A stretch of 54,054 nucleotides of DNA from an uncultured Clostridia bacterium (GCA_946542465.1 CAMNKQ010000001.1:1-54054), one strand, 5' to 3'; counted from the first letter of the stretch, positions 172 through 12,885 are shown. Numbers and translations are program-made. Notes: a model not told the origin generated them from the sequence alone.

Positions 172-196
172 AATCCGTTTCACGGTGAAACGGATT
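172..196. repeat. 25-nt perfect palindrome AATCCGTTTCAC-G-GTGAAACGGATT (island palindrome family, GTTTCAC type)
   Basis: Read directly: 12+1+12 nt. Overlaps the stop codon of the Spo0A_C-like gene. Confidence 0.9.
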
Positions 197-566
197 AATC
201 CACGCCGTAGCGGAGAAAGGCGACCAGTATATCGATAAACTCACTGTTGGTGGGTGACTTCTCCAGCTCGATCCCGGCCACGCGGTTGAGGTCGGAATGA
301 TTGCGTCGATTCCATACCGAGGCAATCAGCGTACGGATCGCGTGTTCCACGGAGGACGGGCTAACCTTGAAATACAGGGCCGTTTCCGGGTAGGCGCATT
401 TGGTGATCCAGAAATACTCGTCCGGCTTCTGCAATATGTGATACACGATATAGACGGTGTAATGAAAGCCGACCAGTCTGCCGGAGGCGCCGATGCTGCG
501 AAGCAGCCGTGCGATCTCCTCCGGCGTCACGCCGGACATGTTGTTTTCAGAATAAAAGCTGTACAT
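195..566 (-). CDS. Spo0A C-terminal-domain-like DNA-binding protein
   Basis: ORF translation has ITKCAYPETALYFKVSPSSVEHAIRTLIASVW ... SPTNSEFIDIL. This matches the Spo0A_C signature (TK.LYP..A......S.VERAIRHAI..AW ... PTNSEFI). Confidence 0.8.
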   Translation of the reverse strand: MYSFYSENNMSGVTPEEIARLLRSIGASGRLVGFHYTVYIVYHILQKPDEYFWITKCAYPETALYFKVSPSSVEHAIRTLIASVWNRRNHSDLNRVAGIELEKSPTNSEFIDILVAFLRYGVD

Positions 567-1208: not shown

Positions 1209-3275
1209 CTATTTCCGCTCGCTGTAATAAAGCGACAGACGGGACATAATGTCCGCTGCAGCTTCCTGAGAAGTGACTTGTCCGGCAAAAAACCGCGCAG
1301 CGCTCGTAAGTACGATTGTATAAGTGGTGGAGTTGCTATCGTAAACGCCAGACACCCCATTTACCAATTCATCAAATTCGCTGATATGAGATGTATCTAC
1401 GATCGGTTCTCCGTTAATCGTTCCTCCGTTTTCAACTGCGGAATATCCCTCGCTCACTCGCCGCTCATATTCTGCTTTCAAGAGGGGGCAGTATGCTGAA
1501 CTGGAGCTTGTCCCCATTTCGGAAAGGAGCATGAATTTTATAAACTCCCATGCGCCTTCTTTATTCTCAGAACCTTTTGGAATTGCAAGTTTGCAAGACG
1601 GGACGATAATACCTGTGCCTTCAAAAAAAGGCATTCCAAATATGGCCATATCTCCGGCATTGCCGCCGAAATACTGGCGGCTGAACCACCAGCTTGCAAA
1701 GCTCTCATAACTGGACACTAAATAAAGCGGCTCCGCCCCAGTGGAATCATCGTACTCTTCTGGCAATTTAGCGGCATATTCCAAAATGGAAGCAATATCG
1801 TCCTGCGAATAGAGCTCCGTTTTTTGACTGCAAAAGGCTAATTCCAGAAAGGTATCCCGCGGCAATGTTCCGGCAAATGCTGAGTCTGGATCGCCTAAAG
1901 CGCCAAGTCTTTCGGATACAGTTGTGTGATGTTCGCTATGGACAAGTTCTTTGCTTCCGGTAATTGACCAGATAGTAAAAGCGGGCGCTATGCTCAAGAG
2001 CTTTCCGTCTTTTGTCGTCATGGCGTTTAACGGCCCTTCAAGTAAATCTGCCGTTGAAATGTCGGGATCGGCGTTGAAATATTCAACTAAGTCCTCCAAA
2101 GCATTTTCATTCGCAATGTTACTTGAAAAAGACATAATGTCAATGATGTCCGGAGCACTTCCGGCATTCATTTCTGTTGCCAAGGTTTGCATAGGATCAG
2201 TATATTGGCTATAGTCTTTGACTACCAAATGGTACTTATCATTTTCGTCATTAAACCGGATAACAATGTTAGAAAATTCATTAGGCATCCCATTGATCGC
2301 GATCACGATTTCTTTCCTTTGCGCAGAATCATCACTGTCTTCCTGTATCAGGCGAATGACGTCTGCAAACCAGACGAGATATTGACCGTTTGAATTAAGG
2401 GAAAAGCTCCCGTTGGAATGGATACCGACGCTTGTCCATTGAAATAGCCGGGTGATTGTGCCTGTTGCATTTTTATAGCAAAAGACATCCGTGGAGTTCC
2501 CAACATATATTTTCCCATCACAAGCCGCTAAAAGCCGCCCCGAGTCAAAAGCACATATCTCTGTCAGCTCTCCACTTTCGCAGTCAACGCTACTAATATG
2601 GAGCCCATCCGTATTGTTTGTCCCAATATAAATACTCACACCATCTGAGACCATCGAAAAGGGTTTTCCAATACTAATTTGCTCGCTCTTGACCCCCGTA
2701 TCCGTATATTGCGCGATAAGATATTCGTTGGAATCGACATTTACATAGCTTAAATACAGCATGTCTCCAACTTGACTAATCCCATTTATATAAATATTGG
2801 ATTGAGGTTCCAGATCTGCCAAGGCGCCGTGCCTGCCATCGGCATATGCGTTGTACAGCGAATAATGATTGCTATCATCGTTTTCTGTGCATACAACTAA
2901 TGTAATGCAATCACTGCTTTTTGCTGCGATTGCAGAAACAGACTGATTCTCCTCCAACCAGCTTAAGTCATAGGTGATTTGAACATTACCATTGAGGTCA
3001 TAGTCCCGAAGAACTAAAGCGTGGTCTTTTTCTCCATACACGATCATTTCATTATCCAGCAGCACAATGCTTCCAACAAAAGAAACTGAATCGGATAATT
3101 GCAGCGTTTTTGACCTGTATGTGCTTGATGCGTCCTCATGGCTATCTACGGAGTTTAGGATCATTGCGCCGGATTCAGAAAGCCGAGCCTGCTCATTTTT
3201 CCCACAGCCAGATAATAGGCAGCATAGAAGCGAAATGAGCAGAAGAACGCTTATCATGGTTTTGTGTTTATACAT
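1209..3275 (-). CDS. Lipoprotein with a C-terminal extracellular solute-binding-protein-like half and an uncharacterised N-terminal half
   Basis: Signal peptide plus lipobox (LLSGC). Start moved to MYKHK (GAGGAA RBS 6 nt upstream). The C-terminal half resembles ABC substrate-binding proteins. No permease nearby. Confidence 0.6.
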   Translation of the reverse strand: MYKHKTMISVLLLISLLCCLLSGCGKNEQARLSESGAMILNSVDSHEDASSTYRSKTLQLSDSVSFVGSIVLLDNEMIVYGEKDHALVLRDYDLNGNVQITYDLSWLEENQSVSAIAAKSSDCITLVVCTENDDSNHYSLYNAYADGRHGALADLEPQSNIYINGISQVGDMLYLSYVNVDSNEYLIAQYTDTGVKSEQISIGKPFSMVSDGVSIYIGTNNTDGLHISSVDCESGELTEICAFDSGRLLAACDGKIYVGNSTDVFCYKNATGTITRLFQWTSVGIHSNGSFSLNSNGQYLVWFADVIRLIQEDSDDSAQRKEIVIAINGMPNEFSNIVIRFNDENDKYHLVVKDYSQYTDPMQTLATEMNAGSAPDIIDIMSFSSNIANENALEDLVEYFNADPDISTADLLEGPLNAMTTKDGKLLSIAPAFTIWSITGSKELVHSEHHTTVSERLGALGDPDSAFAGTLPRDTFLELAFCSQKTELYSQDDIASILEYAAKLPEEYDDSTGAEPLYLVSSYESFASWWFSRQYFGGNAGDMAIFGMPFFEGTGIIVPSCKLAIPKGSENKEGAWEFIKFMLLSEMGTSSSSAYCPLLKAEYERRVSEGYSAVENGGTINGEPIVDTSHISEFDELVNGVSGVYDSNSTTYTIVLTSAARFFAGQVTSQEAAADIMSRLSLYYSERK

Positions 3276-3310
3276 TTTTGGTTCCTCTTTTTTGAGTTGT
3301 CGTGTCATTC

Positions 3311-4438
3311 TTATCGGATCGTGCTGTAATCCACCATGTCCAGTATGGTGTCAATGGCAGCGTCGCTCAGCCTGCTAACTTGTGAGATATGAAGCGTGGC
3401 GAACGAGTTTTTCAAATAGACATAAGCATAGGCATCCGTGCCATTTTGCAATACGGTGAGTTCCGTCCCGTCTGGGGTAGTATGGCTCCTAACCGTAAAG
3501 GCGCTGACATCCTCAACAACGTCAAAAATCTCATCGCCGCTGGATAGGGTGCCATAGGGGGAGTTGTAAAGATAACAGATGGGGCCGGATTCCGTCTGGT
3601 CTTCCGTGATAAAGAAGCTGACGGCAAAGGTTCCCTCGTCGAAATAATAGAATTTGTCATACCCTGCAGGCTCGACGCGGAAGAAACTGCTACCTCCGGC
3701 GCAGACTTCGTTGATTCTTGCGGTGACTTCCTCGCGGGTAGAAAACTCCTCTCTGTCTCCATAGTTCTGATAGATCACAGTAATCTGATGCCTAAGCTTT
3801 AGCTCATAGCTCGCAGCAATGCTTTCCAGCTTGTCTGCCATCTCCTGTGTATAGATGTGATAACTTGGATCGTAGCCGGGGAAGTCCTTTGATCTGACTT
3901 CCAAATATGCCTCAAACTGCGCGTAATCTTCTGCGCTGATAACACGTCTTTCGATCTCCTCTATACCGCGCAGGAAGATCATCGTCACGGTTCCGTCCTC
4001 ATTTTTCTCGTCTATAATGCCGCTGCAGTTCTCGGGCAACCTGCAGCTCTCCGGGGTGTGGGGAGCGTTCTCATCGCACCAGGAACTCCACTCTTCCCAG
4101 GCTTTTGCGGAGTTGTCGATCTTCTCTCTGATTTCATCGTCCATTTCCTCCGGCACATCCTGCGGCTGGGTAATGGACAGATAATCTGCGTTTGGATTCT
4201 CCCGCGGTTTGCTCCCTCTTATGAGCAACGCTTGTAGGCCGAAGAGATTTGTGGCATAGGCGACTCCTGTAAAAAGGGAAACGATAATAGCAGCAACCAG
4301 CAATGTGCTCCAAAGTTTCCGGTTAATGTGATGGGTTTTGGGACTTTCCGCGCTATAACCGAGAGCATTTGCGGTATCCGTGACATACTCATCTCTTATA
4401 CCGCGCATGGCGTTCAGTAAGGCAAAAGAATCTAACAT
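3311..4438 (-). CDS. Single-pass membrane protein, putative anti-sigma factor partner (paralog of 12986-14272)
   Basis: 7-nt overlap with the upstream sigma gene. Short cytoplasmic N-terminus, one TM segment, large extracytoplasmic domain. Clear similarity to 12986-14272 (QPQ.VPE.MD...REK..N..KAW.EW; YLY.S.Y.TLSSG.EI...VEDV). Confidence 0.5.
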   Translation of the reverse strand: MLDSFALLNAMRGIRDEYVTDTANALGYSAESPKTHHINRKLWSTLLVAAIIVSLFTGVAYATNLFGLQALLIRGSKPRENPNADYLSITQPQDVPEEMDDEIREKIDNSAKAWEEWSSWCDENAPHTPESCRLPENCSGIIDEKNEDGTVTMIFLRGIEEIERRVISAEDYAQFEAYLEVRSKDFPGYDPSYHIYTQEMADKLESIAASYELKLRHQITVIYQNYGDREEFSTREEVTARINEVCAGGSSFFRVEPAGYDKFYYFDEGTFAVSFFITEDQTESGPICYLYNSPYGTLSSGDEIFDVVEDVSAFTVRSHTTPDGTELTVLQNGTDAYAYVYLKNSFATLHISQVSRLSDAAIDTILDMVDYSTIR

Positions 4439-4989
4439 AAGCCTTCCTCCTGTAAGTATGTACGCAGCTTACCTCTTGACCGATATAAAGACGATTTTAC
4501 CTTGCTCTGGCTATAGCCAAGCCTTTTTGATATCTCTGCAACGGACTCTAGAAACCAGTAGCGGGCAATAAACATTCTCCGCTCTGATTCAGGTAATGTG
4601 CTGACAAATGCATCAATCGCAGTCTCCAGTTCCTTTTCTTCATAAAGCTGCTCTATACTGATTACTGTTGGGATGCACTCTTCCAGCTCATCCAAGGCCA
4701 GGGGCGTTTCACCGCCGCCGCGCTTTTTGCTGGTTCTTGCACGGTATCGGTTAAGAGCAAGATTTCGCGTAATATACCCTAAAAAAGTCGAGAGAACAGA
4801 GGGCCGCTTGTCCGGCATCAGATTCCAGGCATTAAACCATGTATCGTTCACACACTCCTCCGCATCTTCGTTGCTTGCGCATATGTTATACGCGATGGTA
4901 TGGCAATACCTGCCATACTTGCGATCCGTTTCCGATATGGCCTGATCGGAACGCTGCCAGTACAGATCAACAATCGCTGCGTCTTCCAT
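4432..4989 (-). CDS. Sigma-70 family (ECF-like) RNA polymerase sigma factor
   Basis: IVDLYWQRSDQAI...EDAEECVNDTWFNAW (region 2) and C-terminal SVAEISKRLGYSQSKVKSSLYRSRGKL (region 4 HTH). Paralog of 14269-14826. Confidence 0.8.
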   Translation of the reverse strand: MEDAAIVDLYWQRSDQAISETDRKYGRYCHTIAYNICASNEDAEECVNDTWFNAWNLMPDKRPSVLSTFLGYITRNLALNRYRARTSKKRGGGETPLALDELEECIPTVISIEQLYEEKELETAIDAFVSTLPESERRMFIARYWFLESVAEISKRLGYSQSKVKSSLYRSRGKLRTYLQEEGLC

Positions 4990-5154: not shown

Positions 5155-5171
5155 TGTCTCACGGTGAGACA
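5155..5171. repeat. 17-nt palindrome TGTCTCAC-G-GTGAGACA (island palindrome family, GTCTCAC type)
   Basis: Perfect 8+1+8. The 23-mer TTGTCTCACGGTGAGACACATTT is identical at 5154, 7012 and 11179. Lies 4 nt downstream of the mobC stop. Confidence 0.9.
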
Positions 5172-5501: not shown

Positions 5502-5532
5502 GGAAACTTGTCTCACGGTGAGACAAGTTTCC
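5502..5532. repeat. 31-nt perfect palindrome GGAAACTTGTCTCAC-G-GTGAGACAAGTTTCC
   Basis: 15+1+15 nt. On the minus strand it is followed by TTTTTT (terminator-like), yet it sits only ~18 nt upstream of the mobC start. Confidence 0.9.
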
Positions 5533-5556
5533 GGTTAATAGCTATTCGTTTATAAA

Positions 5557-5577
5557 TTCGTTTCACGGTGAAACGAA
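5557..5577. repeat. 21-nt perfect palindrome TTCGTTTCAC-G-GTGAAACGAA
   Basis: 10+1+10 nt, just downstream of the stop of ORF 5596-5976. Confidence 0.9.
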
Positions 5578-5595: not shown

Positions 5596-5976
5596 TTACT
5601 CCGTTGGCCTGATGCTTGATTCGATGAGCGCCAATTCTTCAGATGTAAGCTGATCCCGGCGCTTCAGGCCTTTATCGAGAAGGATGTGAATTCCTTTTGC
5701 CCGAAGAAAAACTTCCGCATTTATGTATGCCTCTTGATAAGTGATGGGCCTGATTGGATGGATCGCGTTCCACGTAATAGTTTCGGCAAGATACTTAATC
5801 ATCAAATTGTTAATATGCTGCTGCATTTTTTCGTGCTGTTGGGTGTAATAGTACTCCCGAAGCTTGTGGACCTCATCAATCAAGTCCGAGATCTCTCTGA
5901 TATCTTTGTATGGCTCAAGGGAATTCAAATAATCGTTCACGCCTGTTCTCCTTCGACTTTTCTTGATAACCGCCAA
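5596..5976 (-). CDS. Hypothetical helical protein (TTG start)
   Basis: Open frame with a plausible GAGG RBS. I recognise no family. Confidence 0.4.
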   Translation of the reverse strand: MAVIKKSRRRTGVNDYLNSLEPYKDIREISDLIDEVHKLREYYYTQQHEKMQQHINNLMIKYLAETITWNAIHPIRPITYQEAYINAEVFLRAKGIHILLDKGLKRRDQLTSEELALIESSIRPTE

Positions 5977-6024
5977 TTAGCCTCAGCAACAATCCGTCTT
6001 TTGTTTCGCAATATTAAGAAAAAC

Positions 6025-6219
6025 TCAAATTTGCGAAATAGAACTCAGGTGCGCCTTATGCAGCTCGGCAAACACCTCAGCAGCCGGCGTCACACGCCCG
6101 GCAGCAGTGTCACCAAAGCCCTTCTCGATTTCCGCTTTCAACTGCTCCTTTGTGAGATTGCTCATGTCCGGGACGGGGACGACGGGCGGTTTCATCTTCG
6201 GTGCTGTTCTATTCTTCAT
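6025..6219 (-). CDS. Small hypothetical protein resembling the C-terminal tail of an antitoxin
   Basis: LTKEQLKAEIEKGFGDTAAGRVTPAAEVFAELHKA resembles the C-terminal segments of Phd/ParD-like antitoxins. The ATG overlaps the ParE stop by 11 nt. The start is uncertain (alternative MKPPVV). Confidence 0.3.
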   Translation of the reverse strand: MKNRTAPKMKPPVVPVPDMSNLTKEQLKAEIEKGFGDTAAGRVTPAAEVFAELHKAHLSSISQI

Positions 6220-6517
6220 CGATTCTGCTTCTGTCTCTCTTGCCATAGAGAAAGCGGCGAATCTCCACACGGTCTTGAAAGACGGCGTAATAGAGCACAT
6301 AGTTCTTGACCGGCACCTTGCGGATCTCGTCCTTCATCGGGCGGTCTGTCCGGTAGAGCTCATGGGCGTAGGGGAACTCCGCGATGCGCTGTACCGTCTC
6401 GTCAAACTCGGCCAGCAGATCGCGGGCGGCTTTTGGCGCGTCCAGCGTGTAGGCAATATAGCCCAGCGCGTCCATCAAGTCGCTCTCCGCCAGCGGCAAA
6501 TAAACGATCTTATGCAC
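6209..6517 (-). CDS. RelE/ParE-family type II toxin
   Basis: IVYLPLAESDL..ALGYIA......AA..LL.EFDE.V..IAEFPYA......D.........R...V.NYVLYY.V....VEIRRFLYG.RD pattern. GTG start with a GGAGGAG RBS, overlapping the Phd stop. Confidence 0.75.
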   Translation of the reverse strand: MHKIVYLPLAESDLMDALGYIAYTLDAPKAARDLLAEFDETVQRIAEFPYAHELYRTDRPMKDEIRKVPVKNYVLYYAVFQDRVEIRRFLYGKRDRSRIDEE

Positions 6518-6797
6518 GCTTTTGCTCCTCCGCACCGCTCAGAAACGCACGCGCTTTCGCCATAACATCGGCATGGCTCAAACGCTCGGTCGTGCTGGCC
6601 GCCTGCAGTTCCGCCTCACGCAGCTTGTCATAGACCATGCTGTCATAACGGTTCTGCTCATAGCTCTCCATGCTCATGACAACGATGGAGCCGACGCCGT
6701 TCTTGGTCAGGAAGATCGGCTCACCGCTGAGCTGGGCGTCTTTCGTGATCTCAGCGAAATGATTTCTCAGATCGGAAACAGGACGAATATTCGGCAT
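6510..6797 (-). CDS. Phd/YefM-family type II antitoxin
   Basis: IRPVSDLRNHFAEITKDAQLSGEPIFLTKNGVGSIVVMSMESYE is typical Phd/YefM. AAGGAGG RBS. Confidence 0.8.
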   Translation of the reverse strand: MPNIRPVSDLRNHFAEITKDAQLSGEPIFLTKNGVGSIVVMSMESYEQNRYDSMVYDKLREAELQAASTTERLSHADVMAKARAFLSGAEEQKRA

Positions 6798-6821
6798 CTC
6801 GCCACCTCCTTGCTTAGCATT

Positions 6822-6850
6822 ATTATATGCATAATTGCGCTAATTGTCAA
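6822..6850 (-). promoter_or_regulatory. Consensus sigma-A promoter of the Phd/ParE operon (TTGACA-17-TATAAT)
   Basis: Read on the minus strand: TTGACAattagcgcaattatgcaTATAAT. The palindromic TATGCATA abuts the -10 and extends into the spacer. Confidence 0.7.
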
Positions 6851-6910
6851 CGGTATATATTGGCGTGTCTGGTCGCTCCGGCAGCCTTCCGTTCATCGCG
6901 TCGCGTGGGG

Positions 6911-6973
6911 TTTTAGGGGTCATCCCCTAACAGGGGCGCTTGTGTTTAACAAATGCCATACTTGCTTAACACG
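6911..6973. repeat. Right (inverted) copy of the ~63-nt repeat seen at 98-160
   Basis: TTAGGGGtcatCCCCTAA hairpin followed by CAAATGCCATACTTGCTTAACACG, the reverse complement of the 98-123 core. Confidence 0.7.
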
Positions 6974-7012
6974 GTGCGCTGTTTCTCCGCTTGTCGCATG
7001 AAAGAGAAAATT

Positions 7013-7029
7013 TGTCTCACGGTGAGACA
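7013..7029. repeat. 17-nt palindrome TGTCTCAC-G-GTGAGACA flanked by A/T runs; probable terminator of the Ubl operon
   Basis: Perfect palindrome 58 nt downstream of the DUF6527-like stop. On the minus strand it is followed by TTTTCTCTTT. Confidence 0.85.
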
Positions 7030-7086
7030 CATTTTAATTCGAGAAAACAAGGTGTTGGGAATGCAACCCAACACCTTGCCTTTTCC

Positions 7087-7413
7087 TTAATGACACCAAA
7101 GCACTTTGCTGTTTTTTAGGTAGAAATGGCTACCGCATCCGACCTTCCGGTTGATTGAAGGCAAAAAGGACAGTGTTCCCGCTAAATGCCACTGAATCTT
7201 CCAGCAGGGTCTTGACTCTGGGTTTGCATTCAGCTCGATTTTTTGACCGCAGCCACAGGGGCATAAGAAGATTGCATACTGAGGCTTTTGCAGATCACCA
7301 ACAACATATATTTCCCTATCATTAACGGTCTCCGGATAATCGTCCAGGTTAATGATCCGATACCGCTTGCGCAATCTGCTGTTAAAAACACAAAGCTTTT
7401 GGCGGATCTTCAT
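7087..7413 (-). CDS. Small Cys/His-rich protein, DUF6527-like (fourth gene of the Ubl operon)
   Basis: LCPCGCGQKIEL ... C ... VGCGSHFYL ... WCH motifs. The ATG overlaps the E1 stop (ATGA). The family name is from memory of NCBI neighbourhoods of multiubiquitin/E2/ThiF genes. Confidence 0.6.
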   Translation of the reverse strand: MKIRQKLCVFNSRLRKRYRIINLDDYPETVNDREIYVVGDLQKPQYAIFLCPCGCGQKIELNANPESRPCWKIQWHLAGTLSFLPSINRKVGCGSHFYLKNSKVLWCH

Positions 7414-8696
7414 GATTCCCCTCCCAGAAAGGGCATATCCAAAAAGGGAATGCAATCTCCGCGGCCGAGATACTTTGCCAAGGCTGTATCTGCGTTAGCT
7501 GGAGGGTCGATGCGAAAACAGGGCTCTAGCAAATTACATGAGACTACCTCGACATCTTCGTTGGGCGTATCTCTGTAATTGTGGATTCTGTTGATCAGTT
7601 CCTGCACCGCTATACTGGACGCCATCATGTTAATACTAATCACTGCCGGTGCACTTTCTCTGGCTCCAATTATATATTTTTCCTGAAGTCTTGCTTGGTA
7701 AGCAGCAGGATCTGCCCTCCGAAGGGATTCGCTCTGTAATTGCTCGGTGCTATATACTCCCAAGCTGTGTAACGAAGCTTCGCCTGGTATAATATATCTC
7801 ACGGCAGTACTTATTTCAGAAAGCCCTCCGTCGTTGGAAACCAGTTTGACCCCGACATCAATTAAAGGAACAGTGTAAAACGTGCCAATGCGGTTCAGTT
7901 GCATTCGTCCATCTGCAGAATCAAGACATCCAAACAGAACATCACACTGCGAAAGGTGCCGTAATGCATCGCGATCTGCTATGGTTGAAGGGACTGCGAC
8001 AATTTCGCTTTTAAGCCCCATCGCTTCATAGCGCTCTTTGAGCATTTCGGCCTTGTTTCTATGCAGTATCGCGTCGGTTTTCCCTGCGTTTAATATCCGG
8101 CCAAGGTTAACTTCCTCTACCGAATCATCGTCGACCAACACTAACCGCTTCACACCCAGGCGGAATAACTGTTCAGCAACGATGCTCCCTGTGCCGGAAA
8201 CTCCAGCAATGCCTACTGTCAGCGAAGAAAAGATTTCTGTCGTTCCTTTGCCGAAAGCTTGCTTTGTTCGAATGTGAAAATCATTTGATAAGTCAATACC
8301 TGCTTTTGAAGGATTGATGACGATAGAGTGCCCGACGACCTCACATATATCAACGGGCATCAGTGCGCTATCCCAGTAATATGCTGATATTTGCTCCTTT
8401 GCCCATGTAATCCACAGGCAATTAGGAAGATCAAAGGCGACTTCCTGCAATTCTTCCGGGAGACATATGACACAAATAGAATCAGCGGAGTCAGCTAAGA
8501 TACTATTAACTGCAGAACCAGCAACCTCTTTTTCGACGGCTTTATATGACCAAGAGCGTCTCTCTGTTCCATTTGGAAAAACTGTGCGGCCTCCCCCACA
8601 GGACGCTAGGATCACGTTTCCTGAGGCCTTGGCAGCCATAAGGCTGCCAAGGTTTTCAAGTTGCTTTTGGGTAATTCGGAAGGTACGCTCTGTCAT
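7410..8696 (-). CDS. ThiF/MoeB-type E1-like adenylyltransferase with an uncharacterised ~165-aa N-terminal extension
   Basis: VGIAGVSGTGSIVAEQL (nucleotide-binding loop), RLVLVDDDSVEEVNLGRIL, LIDVGV, and SAPAVISINMMASSIAVQELINR (conserved E1 helix). Start set at MTERTF (ATGA overlap with the E2 stop). Confidence 0.8.
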   Translation of the reverse strand: MTERTFRITQKQLENLGSLMAAKASGNVILASCGGGRTVFPNGTERRSWSYKAVEKEVAGSAVNSILADSADSICVICLPEELQEVAFDLPNCLWITWAKEQISAYYWDSALMPVDICEVVGHSIVINPSKAGIDLSNDFHIRTKQAFGKGTTEIFSSLTVGIAGVSGTGSIVAEQLFRLGVKRLVLVDDDSVEEVNLGRILNAGKTDAILHRNKAEMLKERYEAMGLKSEIVAVPSTIADRDALRHLSQCDVLFGCLDSADGRMQLNRIGTFYTVPLIDVGVKLVSNDGGLSEISTAVRYIIPGEASLHSLGVYSTEQLQSESLRRADPAAYQARLQEKYIIGARESAPAVISINMMASSIAVQELINRIHNYRDTPNEDVEVVSCNLLEPCFRIDPPANADTALAKYLGRGDCIPFLDMPFLGGES

Positions 8697-9097
8697 CCTG
8701 TCACCTGCGCGGCAGACGCGCGTTCTAGCCAACCGCTGATTGCAAGTACATGCGTTGCGATGTTGTCCTCGTTGGGAACCCACTCGCCAGCCCGGTAATG
8801 CCGCGACCAACGCTGAAACGGGAGGCCATCGATTGTTACTGTGCATTCTGTCCTCGGGATCGGTTGCCCGTCAGAGCGCACCAGCGGAGGGTTAAAGTAG
8901 ACCATATCGAGCGGGACCGCAGGATAATTTGTTGGGATTTGAATTGCAGCGGTAGCCAGCTTACTCGTATAGCCTTCGCATACGGGAAAGTCATGGATCA
9001 GGAGCCACTGTCCCGAGATGGTTTCCCAGTGAGGGAAAGCGTTGCTAAGATACTCTGTGTCATCAGACGAGAGCGCAAACATTCTCCGGTCTTCCAT
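8693..9097 (-). CDS. Prokaryotic E2/UBC-like protein (family-E type)
   Basis: IQIPTNYPAVPLDMVYFNPPL...DG and FQRWSRHY motifs fit the UBC-like core of prokaryotic E2s linked to multiubiquitin genes. GGAGGG RBS inside the end of the Ubl gene. Confidence 0.7.
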   Translation of the reverse strand: MEDRRMFALSSDDTEYLSNAFPHWETISGQWLLIHDFPVCEGYTSKLATAAIQIPTNYPAVPLDMVYFNPPLVRSDGQPIPRTECTVTIDGLPFQRWSRHYRAGEWVPNEDNIATHVLAISGWLERASAAQVTG

Positions 9098-9100
9098 AGA

Positions 9101-9364
9101 TTAGCCCTCCGTCTGGTCGCGGCTGATATAGGTAAATTTTTCGATCCCAGGTTCTTCAAGATCGACCACCTGGTCAAGCTTGATCTCGCGATAATTGTTT
9201 CCGTGAGTTTTCAGGTCAAGCTTGTAGTTTTCGGGCGGAAGCAGCCCAGCGGCTGTCAAAACCTCTCTGCCGGTGATGGTTCGAGAAGGCCACTCGAAGG
9301 TTTGGTTGCGAACCTTAAATTTGTAGGTCTGCGAAGGTTTAGCTTTTTGAACTTCATTAACCAT
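9101..9364 (-). CDS. Ubiquitin-like beta-grasp protein (multiubiquitin-domain type), ending in Gly
   Basis: YKFKVRNQTFEWPSRTITGREVLTAAGLLPPENYKLDL...EIKLDQVVDLEEPGIEKF pattern. The C-terminus is ...RDQTEG-stop. GGAGGA RBS 7 nt before the ATG at 9364. An in-frame alternative start at 9412 also has an AAGGTG RBS. Confidence 0.7.
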   Translation of the reverse strand: MVNEVQKAKPSQTYKFKVRNQTFEWPSRTITGREVLTAAGLLPPENYKLDLKTHGNNYREIKLDQVVDLEEPGIEKFTYISRDQTEG

Positions 9365-9422
9365 TGTAAAATCCTCCAAAACTCTGTGTGAGTTTTTGTA
9401 CAGTTGTTCCATGCATTTCACC

Positions 9423-9451
9423 TTGCAAAATCCAACTGGAGGAAGTAAAAT
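9423..9451 (+). promoter_or_regulatory. Candidate sigma-A promoter (TTGCAA-17-TAAAAT) for a plus-strand small RNA
   Basis: Read directly. 17-nt spacer. Points away from the Ubl gene start. Confidence 0.55.
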
Positions 9452-9457
9452 AAGAAT

Positions 9458-9585
9458 GTTAGGGGACTTCGGCTCCGCCGGGTGTGGTAGCCCACGTTGG
9501 AGTTGCAAGGCGGCGTGAACCCAATGGAACGTTTGGGGTCACATCTCTATGAGAAGATCACTGGAAAAGTGGTCTTCTTTTTTTG
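9458..9585 (+). ncRNA. Candidate ~128-nt structured sRNA, antisense to the Ubl operon leader
   Basis: Bounded by the promoter at 9423-9451 and a strong intrinsic terminator at 9552-9584. GC-rich patch in AT-rich surroundings with several short hairpins (GTGG-tagc-CCAC; CGCCG...CGGCG; CCCAA...TTGGG). No convincing ORF or RBS. Confidence 0.45.
9552..9584 (+). terminator. Rho-independent terminator (10-bp stem with one G-U, 7-nt loop, T7 tract)
   Basis: AGAAGATCAC tggaaaa GTGGTCTTCT TTTTTT. The T-tract is on the plus strand only. Confidence 0.75.
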
Positions 9586-9692
9586 CGCTGCCCACAGTAT
9601 TACCTTCTCTCTGCTGCCGTAGGCGGTGGTAGACACCTACGACTTCTCTTGAGCTTGATAGGCGTTCGACTCCTTGCCTACCAGCGAGGCCC

Positions 9693-9721
9693 ATTATATG
9701 CGAGCCCGTCCGTAATGTCAA
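9693..9721 (-). promoter_or_regulatory. Perfect consensus sigma-A promoter (TTGACA-17-TATAAT) driving the Ubl operon
   Basis: The minus strand reads TTGACAttacggacgggctcgcaTATAAT. No minus-strand terminator lies between it and the Ubl start, implying a ~320-nt leader. Confidence 0.7.
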
Positions 9722-9757
9722 GCTGTTTTTCCATATTTAGATATCTGCGCAAATTCA

Positions 9758-9773
9758 AACAATATATCTTGTT
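9758..9773. promoter_or_regulatory. Candidate operator: 16-bp near-palindrome AACAATATATCTTGTT
   Basis: One symmetric mismatch pair. Lies between the two divergent promoters, ~22 nt upstream of the regulator -35. Confidence 0.3.
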
Positions 9774-9794
9774 AATTTTATTTAACATCGCCTA

Positions 9795-9823
9795 TTGACT
9801 GCCCACTTGTTCTCTGCTATACT
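9795..9823 (+). promoter_or_regulatory. Sigma-A promoter of the XRE/ImmA regulator gene (TTGACT-17-TATACT)
   Basis: Read directly. An AAGGTGA RBS precedes the ATG at 9870. Confidence 0.6.
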
Positions 9824-9869
9824 ATACGAGCGTCATGAATTAATACACGATAGGAAATAAGGTGAACAT

Positions 9870-11114
9870 ATGGAATTAGAGAATGTAGTCGCAGTAAACA
9901 TTCAACGCCTTATGGAGAAAAATCACTTAACGCAAAATGAGTTAGGTGATTATTTGCATTTAAGTCGCCAGACTATCTCAAAATATTTAAAAGGGAAGAC
10001 CACATTTAATACTGTACAGCTAATTAAGCTTGCTCATTTGTTTAGAGTCTCTATAGAACAGCTTCTTGCTGACGGCAAGGGCTCAGATGTAAAGGTATAT
10101 TATCGCCCAACCAATTTGGACGGCCAATTCTCCTCTGGCAAAAAAGATTACATTCGAGCGTATATCAAAAAATATGTTGAGATTTCTGAGCGAGTTGGAG
10201 ATTATTCGACTTTTACGCCAGAGCAGTATGATCTTTATGCATCAATAAAAGGGGAAAAAATAAACATAAACAGAGAGCTCGGCAATAGTATTTCGCAAAA
10301 AGAGGCCTTAGATGATAGAATTATAGAGGAAATCCTTGCTATAGCAGACGAGCAGAGATTGATTCTTGCGCTGAATGACATTGCTTCGATTGCATTAATC
10401 CCTGCTTTAGAGAAGAAAGGAATAAGAGTCGTTTTTCTTGACTTTGAATGCAGTGATATTTCTGGCGCTTCCGTATGTAGTGATACGTATGGTTGCTTTA
10501 TATTTGTAAACTCAAATGAAGCAATAACTATAGAGCGTCAGCTTTATACGGTTGCCCATGAATATGGGCACATATTACTGCATCGTTCTCTGTATAACAG
10601 TGAATACGTTGACATTAGTAATAAGTATTATACTGACTACCTTGATCATATGGCAAATAAGTTCGCCTCAAGGCTCGTTTTACCACCAGCGCTTTATTAC
10701 AAGTATACGAGTGAACTGAGCAAGGGCGCAAATGATCTGAAATTAATCCTTCCTGTTGCTATGCAGATTAAACAGCAAGTCCGGCTTAGTTTGCAATCTG
10801 TAATGTTGAATCTGCGAGATAATGGATATATCACGAAGGCGGTCGTTGACGAGTACTATGATTTGCTCGATGCCTTGGGGGCTCGGAGCGTAGAACCTGC
10901 GCCGATTAAAGACGAAAAAGATGTGCTTGATGAGTTCAAAAGGAAACGGAATGCAAACGTTTTTTCCTTAGTCACAAAAGCCTTTCGTGCAGGTAGCATC
11001 AACGAAGCAGACGTTGCTTTGCTGTGTGGAATAACCCAGGAAGAAGCAAAAAACACTTTGTCTTCTTTGCGTGAAGGACAGCAAAAGGTTGATGATTTCT
11101 TTACTGTGAAATAA
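9870..11114 (+). CDS. Fused XRE-family HTH / ImmA-IrrE (M78) zinc metallopeptidase regulator with a C-terminal extension
   Basis: N-terminal LTQNELGDYLHLSRQTISKYLKG (HTH_3-like). Central YTVAHEYGHILLH (HExxH) and MANKFASRLVLPP, typical of ImmA/IrrE. Confidence 0.8.
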   Translation: MELENVVAVNIQRLMEKNHLTQNELGDYLHLSRQTISKYLKGKTTFNTVQLIKLAHLFRVSIEQLLADGKGSDVKVYYRPTNLDGQFSSGKKDYIRAYIKKYVEISERVGDYSTFTPEQYDLYASIKGEKININRELGNSISQKEALDDRIIEEILAIADEQRLILALNDIASIALIPALEKKGIRVVFLDFECSDISGASVCSDTYGCFIFVNSNEAITIERQLYTVAHEYGHILLHRSLYNSEYVDISNKYYTDYLDHMANKFASRLVLPPALYYKYTSELSKGANDLKLILPVAMQIKQQVRLSLQSVMLNLRDNGYITKAVVDEYYDLLDALGARSVEPAPIKDEKDVLDEFKRKRNANVFSLVTKAFRAGSINEADVALLCGITQEEAKNTLSSLREGQQKVDDFFTVK

Positions 11115-11179
11115 TAAGACCTTTTCCCGCGGTAGGAATCCTAATCATTTTCTCGCCGCACTAACCACATGAAAAAACT

Positions 11180-11196
11180 TGTCTCACGGTGAGACA
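11180..11196. repeat. 17-nt palindrome TGTCTCAC-G-GTGAGACA downstream of the regulator gene
   Basis: Perfect palindrome. Shares the identical 23-mer with the copies at 5154 and 7012. Confidence 0.9.
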
Positions 11197-11365: not shown

Positions 11366-11402
11366 GGAAGTCTAGAAGTTTCCTTTTGGGAAGTCTAGAA
11401 GT
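11366..11402. repeat. Two direct copies of GGAAGTCTAGAAGT, 23 bp apart (iteron-like)
   Basis: Copies at 11366-11379 and 11389-11402, overlapping the 3' end of the RepA_N gene. Confidence 0.6.
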
Positions 11403-11745
11403 CCGGTTTGGCGCAAAATTGCAGGACATAAATCCGATCCGGCTTGCCCTGGCCTTGCTTTTTGCGCTCGATCAGGCCGATCCGCTCCAGCTCTGAGAGC
11501 AGCTTTCCGGCGGTGACGCGGCTGCAGCCGAAGTCTTCGCAGATCTCCGCAACGGCGTAATACACATACGTTCGGCCTTCCCCGTCCCGCCAGCCGTTCT
11601 TGACGGACAGGCTCACGCGGTCGAGCAGCAGGGCGAACAGCAGCTTCCCTGCGGGCGACAGCGGGCGATACTCCGTCCCTTTGACAAGCTGCCGGGGAAC
11701 CCGGTAAAAAGAAAAGCCCTCGCTCTGAGGGCGCAAATCCGTCAT
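11395..11745 (-). CDS. Short replication-initiator-A N-terminal-domain (RepA_N) protein
   Basis: FYRVPRQLV....YRPLSPAGKLLFALLLDRVSLSVKNGWRDGEGRTYVYYAVAEICEDFGCSRVTAGKLLSELERIGLIERKKQGQGKPDRIYV matches the RepA_N pattern. Only ~116 aa, so domain-only or truncated. Confidence 0.75.
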   Translation of the reverse strand: MTDLRPQSEGFSFYRVPRQLVKGTEYRPLSPAGKLLFALLLDRVSLSVKNGWRDGEGRTYVYYAVAEICEDFGCSRVTAGKLLSELERIGLIERKKQGQGKPDRIYVLQFCAKPDF

Positions 11746-11873: not shown

Positions 11874-12797
11874 TCAAGTGGTTACTGACACATGCGTCAC
11901 CGCTGCCACCAGGCGGCCGTTTTGCAGCACGGGACTGCCGCTCATGCCCTGGACGATGCCGCCGGTCCGATCCCGCAGCTCCGAATCGGTGATGACGATC
12001 ATGGCGTGCAAGCCGTCCCCGTCCTTATACAGGCGGGAGACCTCCGCCCGGTACTCCCGGGCCTCCCGGCCGCTGACCGTGGAGAGAATGGTGGCCGGGC
12101 CCAGCTCAATCGTCCCGGTCTCCACCAGACGGCCGCCCAGGGGCGCCGTCAGATGGCCATAGATGCCGTGGTCGGTGTTTTTCTCCACGTTGCCCAGCAC
12201 CCGGCCCACATCACTGCAGCCGTTGAGCTCGCCGGGGGCGCCCGCCGTGCCGCGCACCACATCCACGATCTCCGCCTCGGTGATGCTGCCGCGGCTCATG
12301 GGCAGGCTCTGCCCGCTCTTTTCATCGCTGACGCTGTGGCCCAGCGCGCCGTAGGTGCCGGTGGCCGGGTCACAGAAGGTGACGGTCCCGATACCGGAGA
12401 TCCCGTCCCGCAGCCACATGCCCAGCATCCACTGCTGCTCCCGGGAGAGCACCGGCGTGACGCTGACGCGCAGGCTCCTCTCCTCCCGCAGAAGGCTCAG
12501 CTCCGCGCTCTCGCCCTCCAGTTCGCCCACGGCGGCGATCAGTTCCGAGGCGCTGTCCACCTCCTGGCCGTTCACGGCGACGACAAAATCTCCCTCCCGG
12601 ACGCCGGCCTCCCGGGCCGGAGCCCGGCTGCCCTCCGCCGTCTCCACCTCGCCGACGCCCGCCACCAGCACACCCCGGGTGCTGATCTGAATGCCCACGA
12701 CCTGTCCGCCCAGGGCCAGCTCCTGGGCAAAGGCCAAGCCGGGCAGCGAAACGAGCAGGCTCAGGGCGAGGCCTGTCGAAATTAGCTGTCTTTTCAT
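11874..12797 (-). CDS. SpoIVB-like S55 serine peptidase with PDZ domain, apparently C-terminally truncated
   Basis: Signal peptide, PDZ-like GDFVVAVNGQEV, GTVTF.DP.TG.YGALGH and GIVQGMSGSPV catalytic Ser motif. Ends AAVTHVSVTT-stop, where canonical SpoIVB continues ~25-30 aa after GAVTHVF. Confidence 0.7.
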   Translation of the reverse strand: MKRQLISTGLALSLLVSLPGLAFAQELALGGQVVGIQISTRGVLVAGVGEVETAEGSRAPAREAGVREGDFVVAVNGQEVDSASELIAAVGELEGESAELSLLREERSLRVSVTPVLSREQQWMLGMWLRDGISGIGTVTFCDPATGTYGALGHSVSDEKSGQSLPMSRGSITEAEIVDVVRGTAGAPGELNGCSDVGRVLGNVEKNTDHGIYGHLTAPLGGRLVETGTIELGPATILSTVSGREAREYRAEVSRLYKDGDGLHAMIVITDSELRDRTGGIVQGMSGSPVLQNGRLVAAVTHVSVTT

Positions 12798-12885
12798 AAA
12801 CGCTTCTCCTCCTGCACAGACTTGTTTGCGCACGAAAGCAGTATGTGCGAAAGACGAAAAATGAAACGCGGCACTTTTTGCCGAC

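Follow-up and report, generated by a model that had tools for sequence, protein, structure and literature searches.

A probable stripped-down Type I Bub operon with a predicted inactive JAB domain and a candidate antisense leader RNA on a low-G+C island of an uncultured Clostridia bacterium

Bub operons, formerly called 6E or DUF6527 operons, were renamed by Ye, Gong, Chambers and Corbett (2024; bioRxiv 10.1101/2024.11.21.623953), who demonstrated the activities of the E1, the E2, the ubiquitin-like protein (Ubl) and the DUF6527 protein for operons from Citrobacter and E. coli. The E1 adenylates the Ubl and then holds it on a tyrosine of its crossover loop, the E2 holds it on a serine, and the DUF6527 protein, BubE, is a zinc-containing Ser-His protease that takes the Ubl off its targets. 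Conjugation, which depends on ATP and runs through oxyester intermediates, and its reversal by BubE are shown only for the homologues from these two sources. The roles of the E1 Tyr, of the E2 Ser, His and Asp and of the BubE residues come from mutagenesis and structures (Ye et al, 2024), and the Citrobacter BubCD, BubB and BubA structures are available in the PDB (9EA4, 9EA5, 9EA8, 9EAE and 9EAV). With oxyester in place of thioester chemistry, Bub operons stand further from ubiquitination than any of its other known relatives in bacteria. Their biochemistry has been worked out, and our literature searches returned no work on Bub function newer than the two 2024 preprints of the Corbett laboratory. 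Here we analysed a stretch of 54,054 nucleotides from an uncultured Clostridia bacterium (GCA_946542465.1 CAMNKQ010000001.1:1-54054, referred to as the window), in which four minus-strand genes at 9364–7087 encode a Ubl, an E2, an E1 and a small Cys/His-rich protein (gene 4).

All four proteins matched a Pfam family above its gathering score: the Ubl matched Multi_ubiq (4.9e-14), the E2 Prok-E2_E (1.8e-30), the E1 ThiF (2.1e-26, aa 147–378) and gene 4 DUF6527 (1.6e-20). The E1 aligned over aa 147–425 with Citrobacter BubCD (6.7e-45) and the E2 with Citrobacter BubB (9eae_C; 5e-24), and among PDB sequences the Ubl matched both Citrobacter BubA 155–229 (4.7e-8) and multi-ubiquitin proteins (9d59; 5.4e-18). 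The sequence thus points to what is very probably a functional but pared-down Bub conjugation operon of the Type I lineage. It is not a new kind of system, as the Bub family, its chemistry and the four-gene unfused layout are already known (Ye et al, 2024). An earlier note, made from the DNA sequence alone, had read the locus as a ubiquitin-like conjugation operon, named Bub operons among its relatives and predicted precisely these four families, and the Pfam and Bub homology bear it out on all three. Its further statement that such an operon has no experimentally defined function still stands for biological role and targets; at the biochemical level it does not, given the chemistry shown for the Citrobacter and E. 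coli operons.

Reading the open reading frames (ORFs) reproduced the compact layout claimed at the outset, including the Ubl ending in RDQTEG. The Ubl and E2 genes are separated by a 3-nt gap (tct), and ATGA overlaps join E2 to E1 and E1 to gene 4 (Table 1). A GGAGG lies 8 nt upstream of the bubA ATG, and directly 3′ of bubE a hairpin, which reads caaggtgttggg-ttgcatt-cccaacaccttg-ttttct on the minus strand, is the likely end of the operon. A genome scan yielded 548 stretches encoding E1 relatives, and we analysed the best 80 loci, 74 of them complete, by profile searches on ORFs. The gene order was the same in 74/74 complete loci, and Ubl-E2-E1-DUF6527 also recurs in metagenome contigs, so that the arrangement is conserved far beyond chance. 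The 4-nt overlap between E2 and E1 is retained throughout the Clostridia clade.

Table 1. Features of the bub locus, with coordinates counted from the first nucleotide of the window
Feature	Position	Strand	Description
bubA (Ubl)	9101..9364	-	87 aa, single beta-grasp domain, C-terminus ...RDQTEG-TAA
bubB (E2, Prok-E2 family E)	8693..9097	-	134 aa, Ser98-x-His100 and Asp64 where the catalytic Cys would be
E1, whole ORF	7410..8696	-	428 aa
Pseudo-JAB, E1 N-terminal domain (aa 1-135)	8292..8696	-	predicted MPN/JAB fold, catalytic residues lost
bubD, E1 adenylation domain (aa 147-428)	7410..8258	-	nucleotide loop GVSGTGS 165-171, Arg200, Tyr341 in Cys-free crossover loop
bubE (gene 4, DUF6527)	7087..7413	-	108 aa, zinc site Cys51/53/55/93, Ser86-His96 dyad
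Likely operon terminator	7048..7078		12-bp G+C-rich hairpin directly 3′ of bubE, T-rich tail also on minus strand (terminator scan)
Antisense RNA promoter P_as (predicted)	9423..9451	+	TTGCAA-17-TAAAAT, inside the leader, directed away from bubA toward the regulator gene
Antisense small RNA (predicted)	9457..9591	+	~130 nt; 5′ hairpin, variable middle, intrinsic terminator
Antisense RNA 5′ hairpin	9480-9493	+	GGG-UGUGGUAG-CCC; bub-strand reading GGG-CUACCACA-CCC
Antisense RNA intrinsic terminator	9551-9579 plus U7	+	seen as A-run and hairpin on the bub strand
Leader hairpin 1	9616..9643	-	on the bub mRNA strand, 10-bp stem, loop UCUACCAC
bub promoter P_bub (predicted)	9693..9721	-	TTGACA-17-TATAAT, sigma-70-type, 12/12 matches (promoter scan)
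Divergent regulator	9870..11114	+	414 aa, XRE-type helix-turn-helix (HTH) fused to M78 (ImmA/IrrE-type) zinc peptidase, motif HEYGH

The reactive Gly87 of BubA is already exposed at the end of its gene, and the C-terminal D.TEG motif to which it belongs was conserved in 74/74 related loci. In the E1, Arg200 and Tyr341 were invariant in alignments of 27 and of 77 homologues. The E2 carries the Type I motif of Asp plus Ser-x-His, with Ser98 in a QRWSRH string that is identical to that of Citrobacter BubB and aligns with BubB S333; this replaces the Cys-based UBC reading of the E2 from which we started. With all Bub catalytic residues present, the operon likely uses a Tyr-to-Ser oxyester relay and not a Cys thioester cascade. 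A canonical cascade of the eukaryotic, Bil or CBASS Cap2 style, with the 108-aa protein as a RING-like E3 or adaptor, would involve the same fold families (ThiF-type E1, UBC-like E2 and beta-grasp Ubl), gene 4 does have a Cys-rich zinc site, and the E1 gave weak partial PADLOC matches to Cap2-type 'E1-E2' models (best 8.9e-10) and to BilD (0.0075). We nevertheless regard such a cascade as very unlikely, as the crossover loop has no Cys and Tyr341 is its only invariant residue, the catalytic position of the E2 is a serine, no nucleotidyltransferase gene was found among the adjacent genes examined, and DUF6527 has been shown to be a Ser-His protease (Ye et al, 2024), both dyad residues of which are present here.

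The same E1 could also be taken for the ThiF/MoeB adenylyltransferase of a sulfur-carrier or cofactor pathway acting on a ThiS/MoaD-type protein, since ThiF/MoeB models are its best NCBIfam matches and a C-terminal Gly is common to the Ubl and to sulfur carriers. That assignment is almost certainly wrong: the NCBIfam scores fall far under the curated cut-offs (55 bits versus 159 and 52 versus 275), an E2 and a deconjugating protease are encoded in the same translationally coupled operon, no thiazole, thiamine or molybdopterin genes lie nearby, and the nearest solved relatives are Bub proteins. The operon had been judged neither CBASS nor sulfur carrier on first reading, and the partial PADLOC matches, the sub-threshold NCBIfam scores and the lack of such genes in its surroundings agree with this.

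Gene 4 is predicted to be BubE, a deconjugating serine protease. Its S-x6-C-x2-H spacing (S+7=C, S+10=H) is identical to that of Citrobacter S92/C99/H102, which contradicts the view that the operon has no recognisable deubiquitinase. A bubE gene was present 3′ of E1 in all related loci, including those where gene callers had missed it, and surveys based on gene calls will under-count BubE. In several public metagenome contigs (our loci L081–L086, L088 and L089–L091; in L081 at 6291–6617) the bubE ORF is intact, with its Ser/Cys/His motif, although uncalled, and it abuts or overlaps the E1 stop codon.

The same view of the operon had set aside any JAB protease, but the additional N-terminal domain of the E1 is of JAB/MPN fold, its active site destroyed. 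The closest E1 homologues (~87) span the whole query and carry PF00899 only, and more distant ones carry PF14464 (Prok-JAB) followed by PF00899. The N-terminal 135 residues of the window E1 align with the JAB domain of these JAB-bearing relatives; in the alignment the context of the catalytic Glu is changed from EAVALLLCG to VILASCGGG and the HSHPxGxxxFSxxD zinc block is deleted, and a Pfam search of the window E1 found no PF14464 match. An AlphaFold2 (AF2) model of the full-length E1 (pLDDT 91.4), which has a single adenylation domain, gave TM-scores of 0.77–0.80 to full-length BubCD versus 0.47 to E1-only structures such as UBA5. When the N-terminal domain was modelled in isolation (AF2 pLDDT 91), Foldseek matched it to MPN/JAB proteins only, including BubCD, Rpn11 and JAMM1 together with the pseudo-enzymes KIAA0157, Rpn8 and Npl4. 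Alignment, AF2 models and fold matches thus indicate that the domain is a catalytically dead JAB. We also asked whether the N-terminus of the E1 might be a second E2 or some other domain and rejected this, because the alignment and two fold searches returned MPN/JAB folds only.

We then compared JAMM motifs with the state of the Ubl gene across the complete loci. The JAMM was present in 31/31 loci in which Ubl and E2 are fused, where the Ubl C-terminus is internal to the fusion. In 34 loci the two genes are split and the JAMM is present; in 22 of these the Ubl ends at Gly and in 12 it carries a tail of 1–13 residues. The remaining nine loci are split and JAMM-less, and in all nine the Ubl ends exactly at Gly, so that the JAMM is absent only where the Ubl gene ends at Gly (Fisher's exact test, p = 1.8e-4, not corrected for relatedness). 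The JAMM-less set comprises at least four lineages, the Clostridia clade and members of Geobacteraceae, Pirellulales and Spirochaetes, and includes one truncated E1 (L029). The degenerate JAB sequences differ from one lineage to another, which indicates independent losses. In the E1s of L061, L062 and L078 (Geobacteraceae, Pirellulales and Spirochaetes) the JAB motif has decayed independently and the adjoining Ubl ends at the reactive Gly. The clade to which the window belongs, from gut and rumen Clostridia, contains at least ~87 protein clusters at 90% identity. It has been suggested that maturing the pre-protein is all that the JAB domain does (Ye et al, 2024), and the census supports this suggestion of JAB as a pre-protein processor only, with BubE as the true deconjugase.

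From the conserved residues we infer that the steps shown for the Citrobacter homologues would take place here in the following way. BubA would be translated with Gly87 exposed, and the E1 domain would adenylate this residue by means of the GVSGTGS loop and Arg200 and then accept BubA on Tyr341 of the crossover loop as an oxyester. BubA would be handed to Ser98 of BubB, assisted by His100 and Asp64, and then moved onto lysines of target proteins. BubE, with its zinc site and Ser86-His96 dyad, would cleave the conjugates and restrain the pathway. In other Type I operons the JAB domain at the N-terminus of the E1 cuts a Ubl-E2 pre-protein; here it would have been kept as a structural MPN fold or scaffold only, because the Ubl is already mature and nothing is left to cut. 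Expression would be kept low by an HTH-M78 regulator, by analogy with CapH/CapP, and by an antisense RNA of ~130 nt from a promoter inside the bub leader, whose GUGGUAG loop could pair with CUACCAC loops in the leader of the bub mRNA.

The regulator gene lies upstream of bubA and is divergent from it. Its product matched Pfam HTH_3 (2.7e-12) and Peptidase_M78 (2e-14) and the PADLOC models RmrA (3e-22) and capP (5e-14). The same divergent gene was found in most clade members (L001, L004, L006, L081-84, L087, L088, L091, L092, L143 and L212). By analogy with known pairs of this kind, it probably keeps bub expression low; CapH together with CapP is carried by 31% of Bub operons (Ye et al, 2024).

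Between bubA and the regulator gene (9365–9869) runs a spacer that is conserved in length (505 nt here and ~470–600 nt across relatives) and partly in sequence. P_bub would yield a 5′ leader of ~320 nt, and relatives have a −10-like element at the same relative position. We aligned the leaders of ten relatives. Hairpin 1 of the bub mRNA strand has 7/8 aligned pairs changed on both sides and 92.5% of cells paired; in 7/11 relatives the sense strand gives the more stable fold, with ~14 G.U cells on that strand, and its loop CTACCAC (CUACCAC in RNA) is invariant across the alignment. Inside the leader, the pattern of P_as, TTG(C/A)(A/G)(A/C)-17-TAnAnT, is kept in 11/11 sequences with a spacer that varies in sequence; the two facing promoters would stand ~230 nt apart. 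The candidate terminator downstream of P_as is 5–14 kcal/mol more stable on the antisense strand in 10/10 sequences, with 93.9% of cells paired and 12/18 pairs covarying, values that 0/500 shuffles reached. The loop of the predicted 5′ hairpin of the antisense RNA, UGUGGUAG (GUGGUAG), is complementary to the CUACCAC loop of hairpin 1. Hairpin 1 lies outside the region of overlap between the two transcripts, which argues that the loop complementarity is kept by selection and not by geometry. The regulator, long leader and antisense RNA proposed in the earlier note therefore gain support, in the case of the RNA from comparative data, and the conserved antisense RNA probably restrains bub expression.

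A covariance model of the element (R1) found every clade member, including L091, which had been left out of the model (39 bits, 1e-8), and none of the JAMM-positive Bub loci, so that the element was seen only beside JAMM-less Bub operons of the Clostridia clade. Rfam searches of the window operon and leader gave no credible match, with only snoRNA- and miRNA-type chance matches and no T-box or riboswitch. The C4, c4-a1b1 and isrK models (RF01695, RF03163 and RF01394) did not match the window at E values up to 10; the same C4-type models match two other contigs, L100 and L127, at 45–69 bits. R1 cross-matched the C4/isrK-type sites of these two contigs weakly (22–24 bits), and both carry the CUACCAC/GUGGUAG heptamer pair and a similar hairpin-plus-terminator.

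These matches bear on another reading, in which the plus-strand element is a 5′ attenuator of the regulator mRNA, with terminated and read-through forms as for Gifsy-1 IsrK and phage P1 c4. The regulator gene does lie downstream of P_as and the terminator on the same strand, the weak R1 matches fall exactly at Rfam isrK/c4-a1b1 sites of two proteobacterial prophage-like contigs, and IsrK acts through terminator read-through into an anti-repressor operon. Against this, the element is kept beside bubA in L089 and L090, which have no such regulator gene adjacent, the bub strand is the one on which hairpin 1, with its complementary loop, folds, the terminator is set apart from the regulator start by ~230 nt and by another promoter-like site (9795–9823), and the window has no Rfam C4/isrK match even at the permissive threshold. 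We consider attenuation of the regulator mRNA possible but doubtful, and it could hold together with an antisense regulator of bub.

We also considered other explanations of the conserved leader. A leader peptide (GGAGG-N7-9-GTG small ORF across the A-run and hairpin) was rejected because frame and peptide differ between close relatives (MGSAKKEDHF..., MALKKRRPPQQ and MDLEKKKTT...); the A-run of the leader is explained as the complement of the U-tract of the antisense terminator. DNA operator palindromes are an unlikely account of the hairpins, since covarying flanks surround an asymmetric centre that does not vary, and the G.U pairs are specific to one strand. A metagenome scan for CTACCAC-N(125-155)-GGCTACCACACC returned at least 119 matches, among them four Bub leaders and 17 C4-type elements. 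We rejected a wide spread of the CTACCAC motif, as most of these matches lack the other features of the element and look like chance occurrences in unrelated, redundant sequences.

Taking the leader and the census together, we tentatively suggest a broader picture, one that we think could be right but would not yet favour. The spacer could be an undescribed RNA switch for a Ubl operon, with facing promoters and a terminated antisense RNA whose GUGGUAG loop kisses the CUACCAC hairpin loops of the nascent leader by means of the heptamer also found in C4/IsrK immunity RNAs of the P1/Gifsy type. With the HTH-M78 regulator, such a switch might be bistable and silence potentially harmful tagging until a phage or DNA-damage signal arrives. 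If the picture is true, the repeated and independent decay of JAB only where the Ubl ends at Gly would also be natural genetic evidence that JAB serves Ubl maturation only.

The operon is located in DNA that looks mobile. The G+C content is ~46% at 1–11.8 kb and ~60% in the rest of the window, and the genes near the operon include a ParE/Phd toxin-antitoxin pair, one for a NikA/MobC protein and a fragment of RepA_N, which upholds the mobile, low-G+C setting with toxin-antitoxin and mobilisation genes described initially. Relatives adjoin type IV secretion genes, Fic, zeta toxin, nSTAND NTPases, RloB/AAA_15 and ResIII. Judged from this context, the operon most likely acts in defence or stress, as a cargo module that mobile elements carry in Clostridia of the gut and rumen.

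Several points weigh against this role or against the mechanism set out above. The mechanism is carried over from homologues that have clearly diverged, despite the strong E-values for the E1 domain and the E2; the N-terminal tail of BubE is basic and not clearly hydrophobic as in the published description of BubE; and the antisense RNA and both promoters are predictions from conservation. E1 relatives were rare on viral contigs, where we found only two distant loci. In addition, no Bub operon tested in E. coli protected against phage (Ye et al, 2024), so that defence is only a candidate role throughout the family.

This last result is also compatible with an active operon that helps to maintain the mobile element or to control its transfer (for example by addiction, exclusion or control of entry) in place of antiphage immunity. 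The position of the operon between the ParE/Phd pair, NikA/MobC and RepA_N on low-G+C DNA would suit such a function, as would a close relative that adjoins conjugation genes (PrgI, VirB4-like and CHAP) and the layout of convergent promoters and antisense RNA, which resembles plasmid and phage switches. However, other relatives adjoin typical defence genes (nSTAND, RloB/AAA_15, ResIII and zeta toxin) and not always transfer genes, and regulators of the CapH/CapP type are typical of defence systems. On balance a pure maintenance function seems to us possible but less likely. Maintenance versus defence is a question of role and not of mechanism, and one does not preclude the other.

Further features of the window and of related loci are as follows. 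A 116-aa ORF at 11395–11745 (minus strand) resembles RepA_N replication initiators in their N-terminal domain alone and is probably a plasmid or integrative-element remnant at the island border. At the left end of the low-G+C stretch, a 123-aa ORF (195–566, minus strand) corresponds to the C-terminal DNA-binding domain of Spo0A alone, and SpoIVB is encoded at its right edge (11874–12833, minus strand), which marks the host, with its ~60% G+C, as a spore-former. As spoIVB and spo0A are neighbours in many Firmicutes, the ~11-kb island may have been inserted between them or into that locus. A tRNA scan of the whole window found none, so no tRNA-linked integration site is visible, and a plasmid database search with the 11.8-kb island gave no match. 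The minus-strand genes at 1209–4989 encode a sigma factor of the extracytoplasmic function type (4432–4989), a protein of 375 aa that has no annotation and one of 699 aa with domains of solute-binding proteins, and have no relation to the Bub module. In the Clostridia clade, some Bub operons stand beside candidate defence genes (L092/L093 at 5653–9308, L089 at 6249–7150 and L090 at 1–883), which include a 1320-aa nSTAND NTPase, a Barstar-linked RNase toxin, a zeta toxin and an RloB/AAA_15 pair; these neighbourhoods fit a defence-island location.

The island also contains a perfect 17-bp palindrome, TGTCTCACGGTGAGACA, with a conserved AAAYTT prefix, at 5155–5171, 5509–5525, 7013–7029 and 11180–11196, and three copies of a variant (171–192, 689–710 and 5554–5575). 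All copies are intergenic and lie in the low-G+C island, where 0 would be expected by chance; two bracket the module of regulator and Bub genes (7030–11180) and two bracket the MobC gene. The palindrome was absent from 221/221 fetched related loci and is therefore not part of the Bub module. It could represent bidirectional terminators, protein-binding sites or cassette junctions.

Three features appear new, in that we did not find them in published descriptions of Bub: the predicted pseudo-JAB state of the Clostridia clade, correlated as it is with a Ubl gene that ends mature, the regulator that joins HTH and M78 in a single chain, and the conserved candidate antisense RNA with its convergent-promoter leader. 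To our knowledge, the leader antisense RNA would be the first reported RNA-level control of a bacterial ubiquitin-like system. Identifying the targets requires the conditions that switch the operon on, and the predicted promoter, loops and terminator offer a concrete handle for finding these conditions.

Comparison with known regulatory systems places the upstream control close to two described arrangements. CapH/CapP and ImmR/ImmA pairs likewise combine an XRE-type HTH protein and an M78 zinc peptidase adjoining and divergent from the operon that they control; there the two are separate proteins, whereas here both predicted activities, and with them CapH- and CapP-like functions, are united in one polypeptide. 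The predicted leader RNA resembles C4, c4-a1b1 and isrK (phage P1 immI and Gifsy-1 IsrK) in being a short terminated RNA made from a promoter within, or pointing towards, the leader of the operon under its control, in pairing via short loops, and in the repressor/anti-repressor-type gene beyond its terminator. It differs in that C4 systems have the regulator RNA on the strand of its targets and the window has the complementary loops on opposite strands, in that the controlled genes here form a ubiquitin-like conjugation operon, and in that no Rfam model matches the window. The leader layout also recalls the prgQ/prgX Anti-Q switch of pCF10, with its facing promoters and terminated countertranscript.

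Among conjugation systems, Bil and Type II CBASS with Cap2/Cap3 share with the window E1/E2 conjugation, a location in mobile or defence islands and a peptidase that reverses or primes conjugation. They have a catalytic Cys, active JAB peptidases and, in CBASS, a nucleotidyltransferase substrate, none of which is found in the window: the PADLOC matches of the E1 to E1-E2 models are partial and confined to its adenylation domain, and the neighbouring genes encode a toxin-antitoxin pair, a mobilisation protein and a regulator, where CBASS has a CD-NTase, a Cap2 that fuses E2 and E1, and the JAB protein Cap3. [quoted passage not shown] Type II Bub (E. coli ZDHYS365; BubA, BubBD and BubE) is closer, with a free Ubl, no active JAB, a BubE and oxyester chemistry. 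However, in Type II the E2 is fused to the E1 N-terminus and uses Ser with Lys and His, whereas the window E2 is free and has the Type I motif, and the N-terminus of the window E1 is modelled as an MPN fold and not an E2.

Two hallmarks of Type I, a Ubl-E2 fusion and an active JAB/JAMM, are missing from the window, where a TAA and the 3-nt gap separate Ubl and E2. Unfused four-gene operons (Ubl, E2, 'DUB+E1 fusion' and DUF6527), with examples from Anaerocolumna xylanovorans, Alicyclobacillus ferrooxydans and Hyphomicrobium denitrificans, were filed under Type I in Table S1 of Ye et al (2024). All unfused operons in that table are labelled 'DUB+E1 fusion'; in our census the JAMM is kept in 34/43 unfused loci and absent in nine, and the window belongs with the JAMM-less set. 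Anaerocolumna xylanovorans (L007), also a member of the Clostridia, shares the unfused layout and likewise has no JAMM motif, but the conserved leader RNA is absent from it. The closest described system is the Type I Bub operon of Citrobacter sp. RHBSTW-00271 (BubAB, BubCD and BubE), which has the same four functions in identical order. Common to both are the E1 Tyr, the E2 Ser-x-His with Asp, the Cys4 site and Ser/His pair of BubE, a Ubl ending in TEG and an N-terminal domain of MPN/JAB fold on the E1. The Citrobacter operon encodes a BubAB pre-protein whose Ubl has three beta-grasp domains, whereas the window has separate Ubl and E2 genes, a single beta-grasp domain and a JAB domain without the Glu, HxH and Asp zinc-site residues, together with a single HTH-M78 fusion regulator and a predicted leader-encoded antisense RNA.

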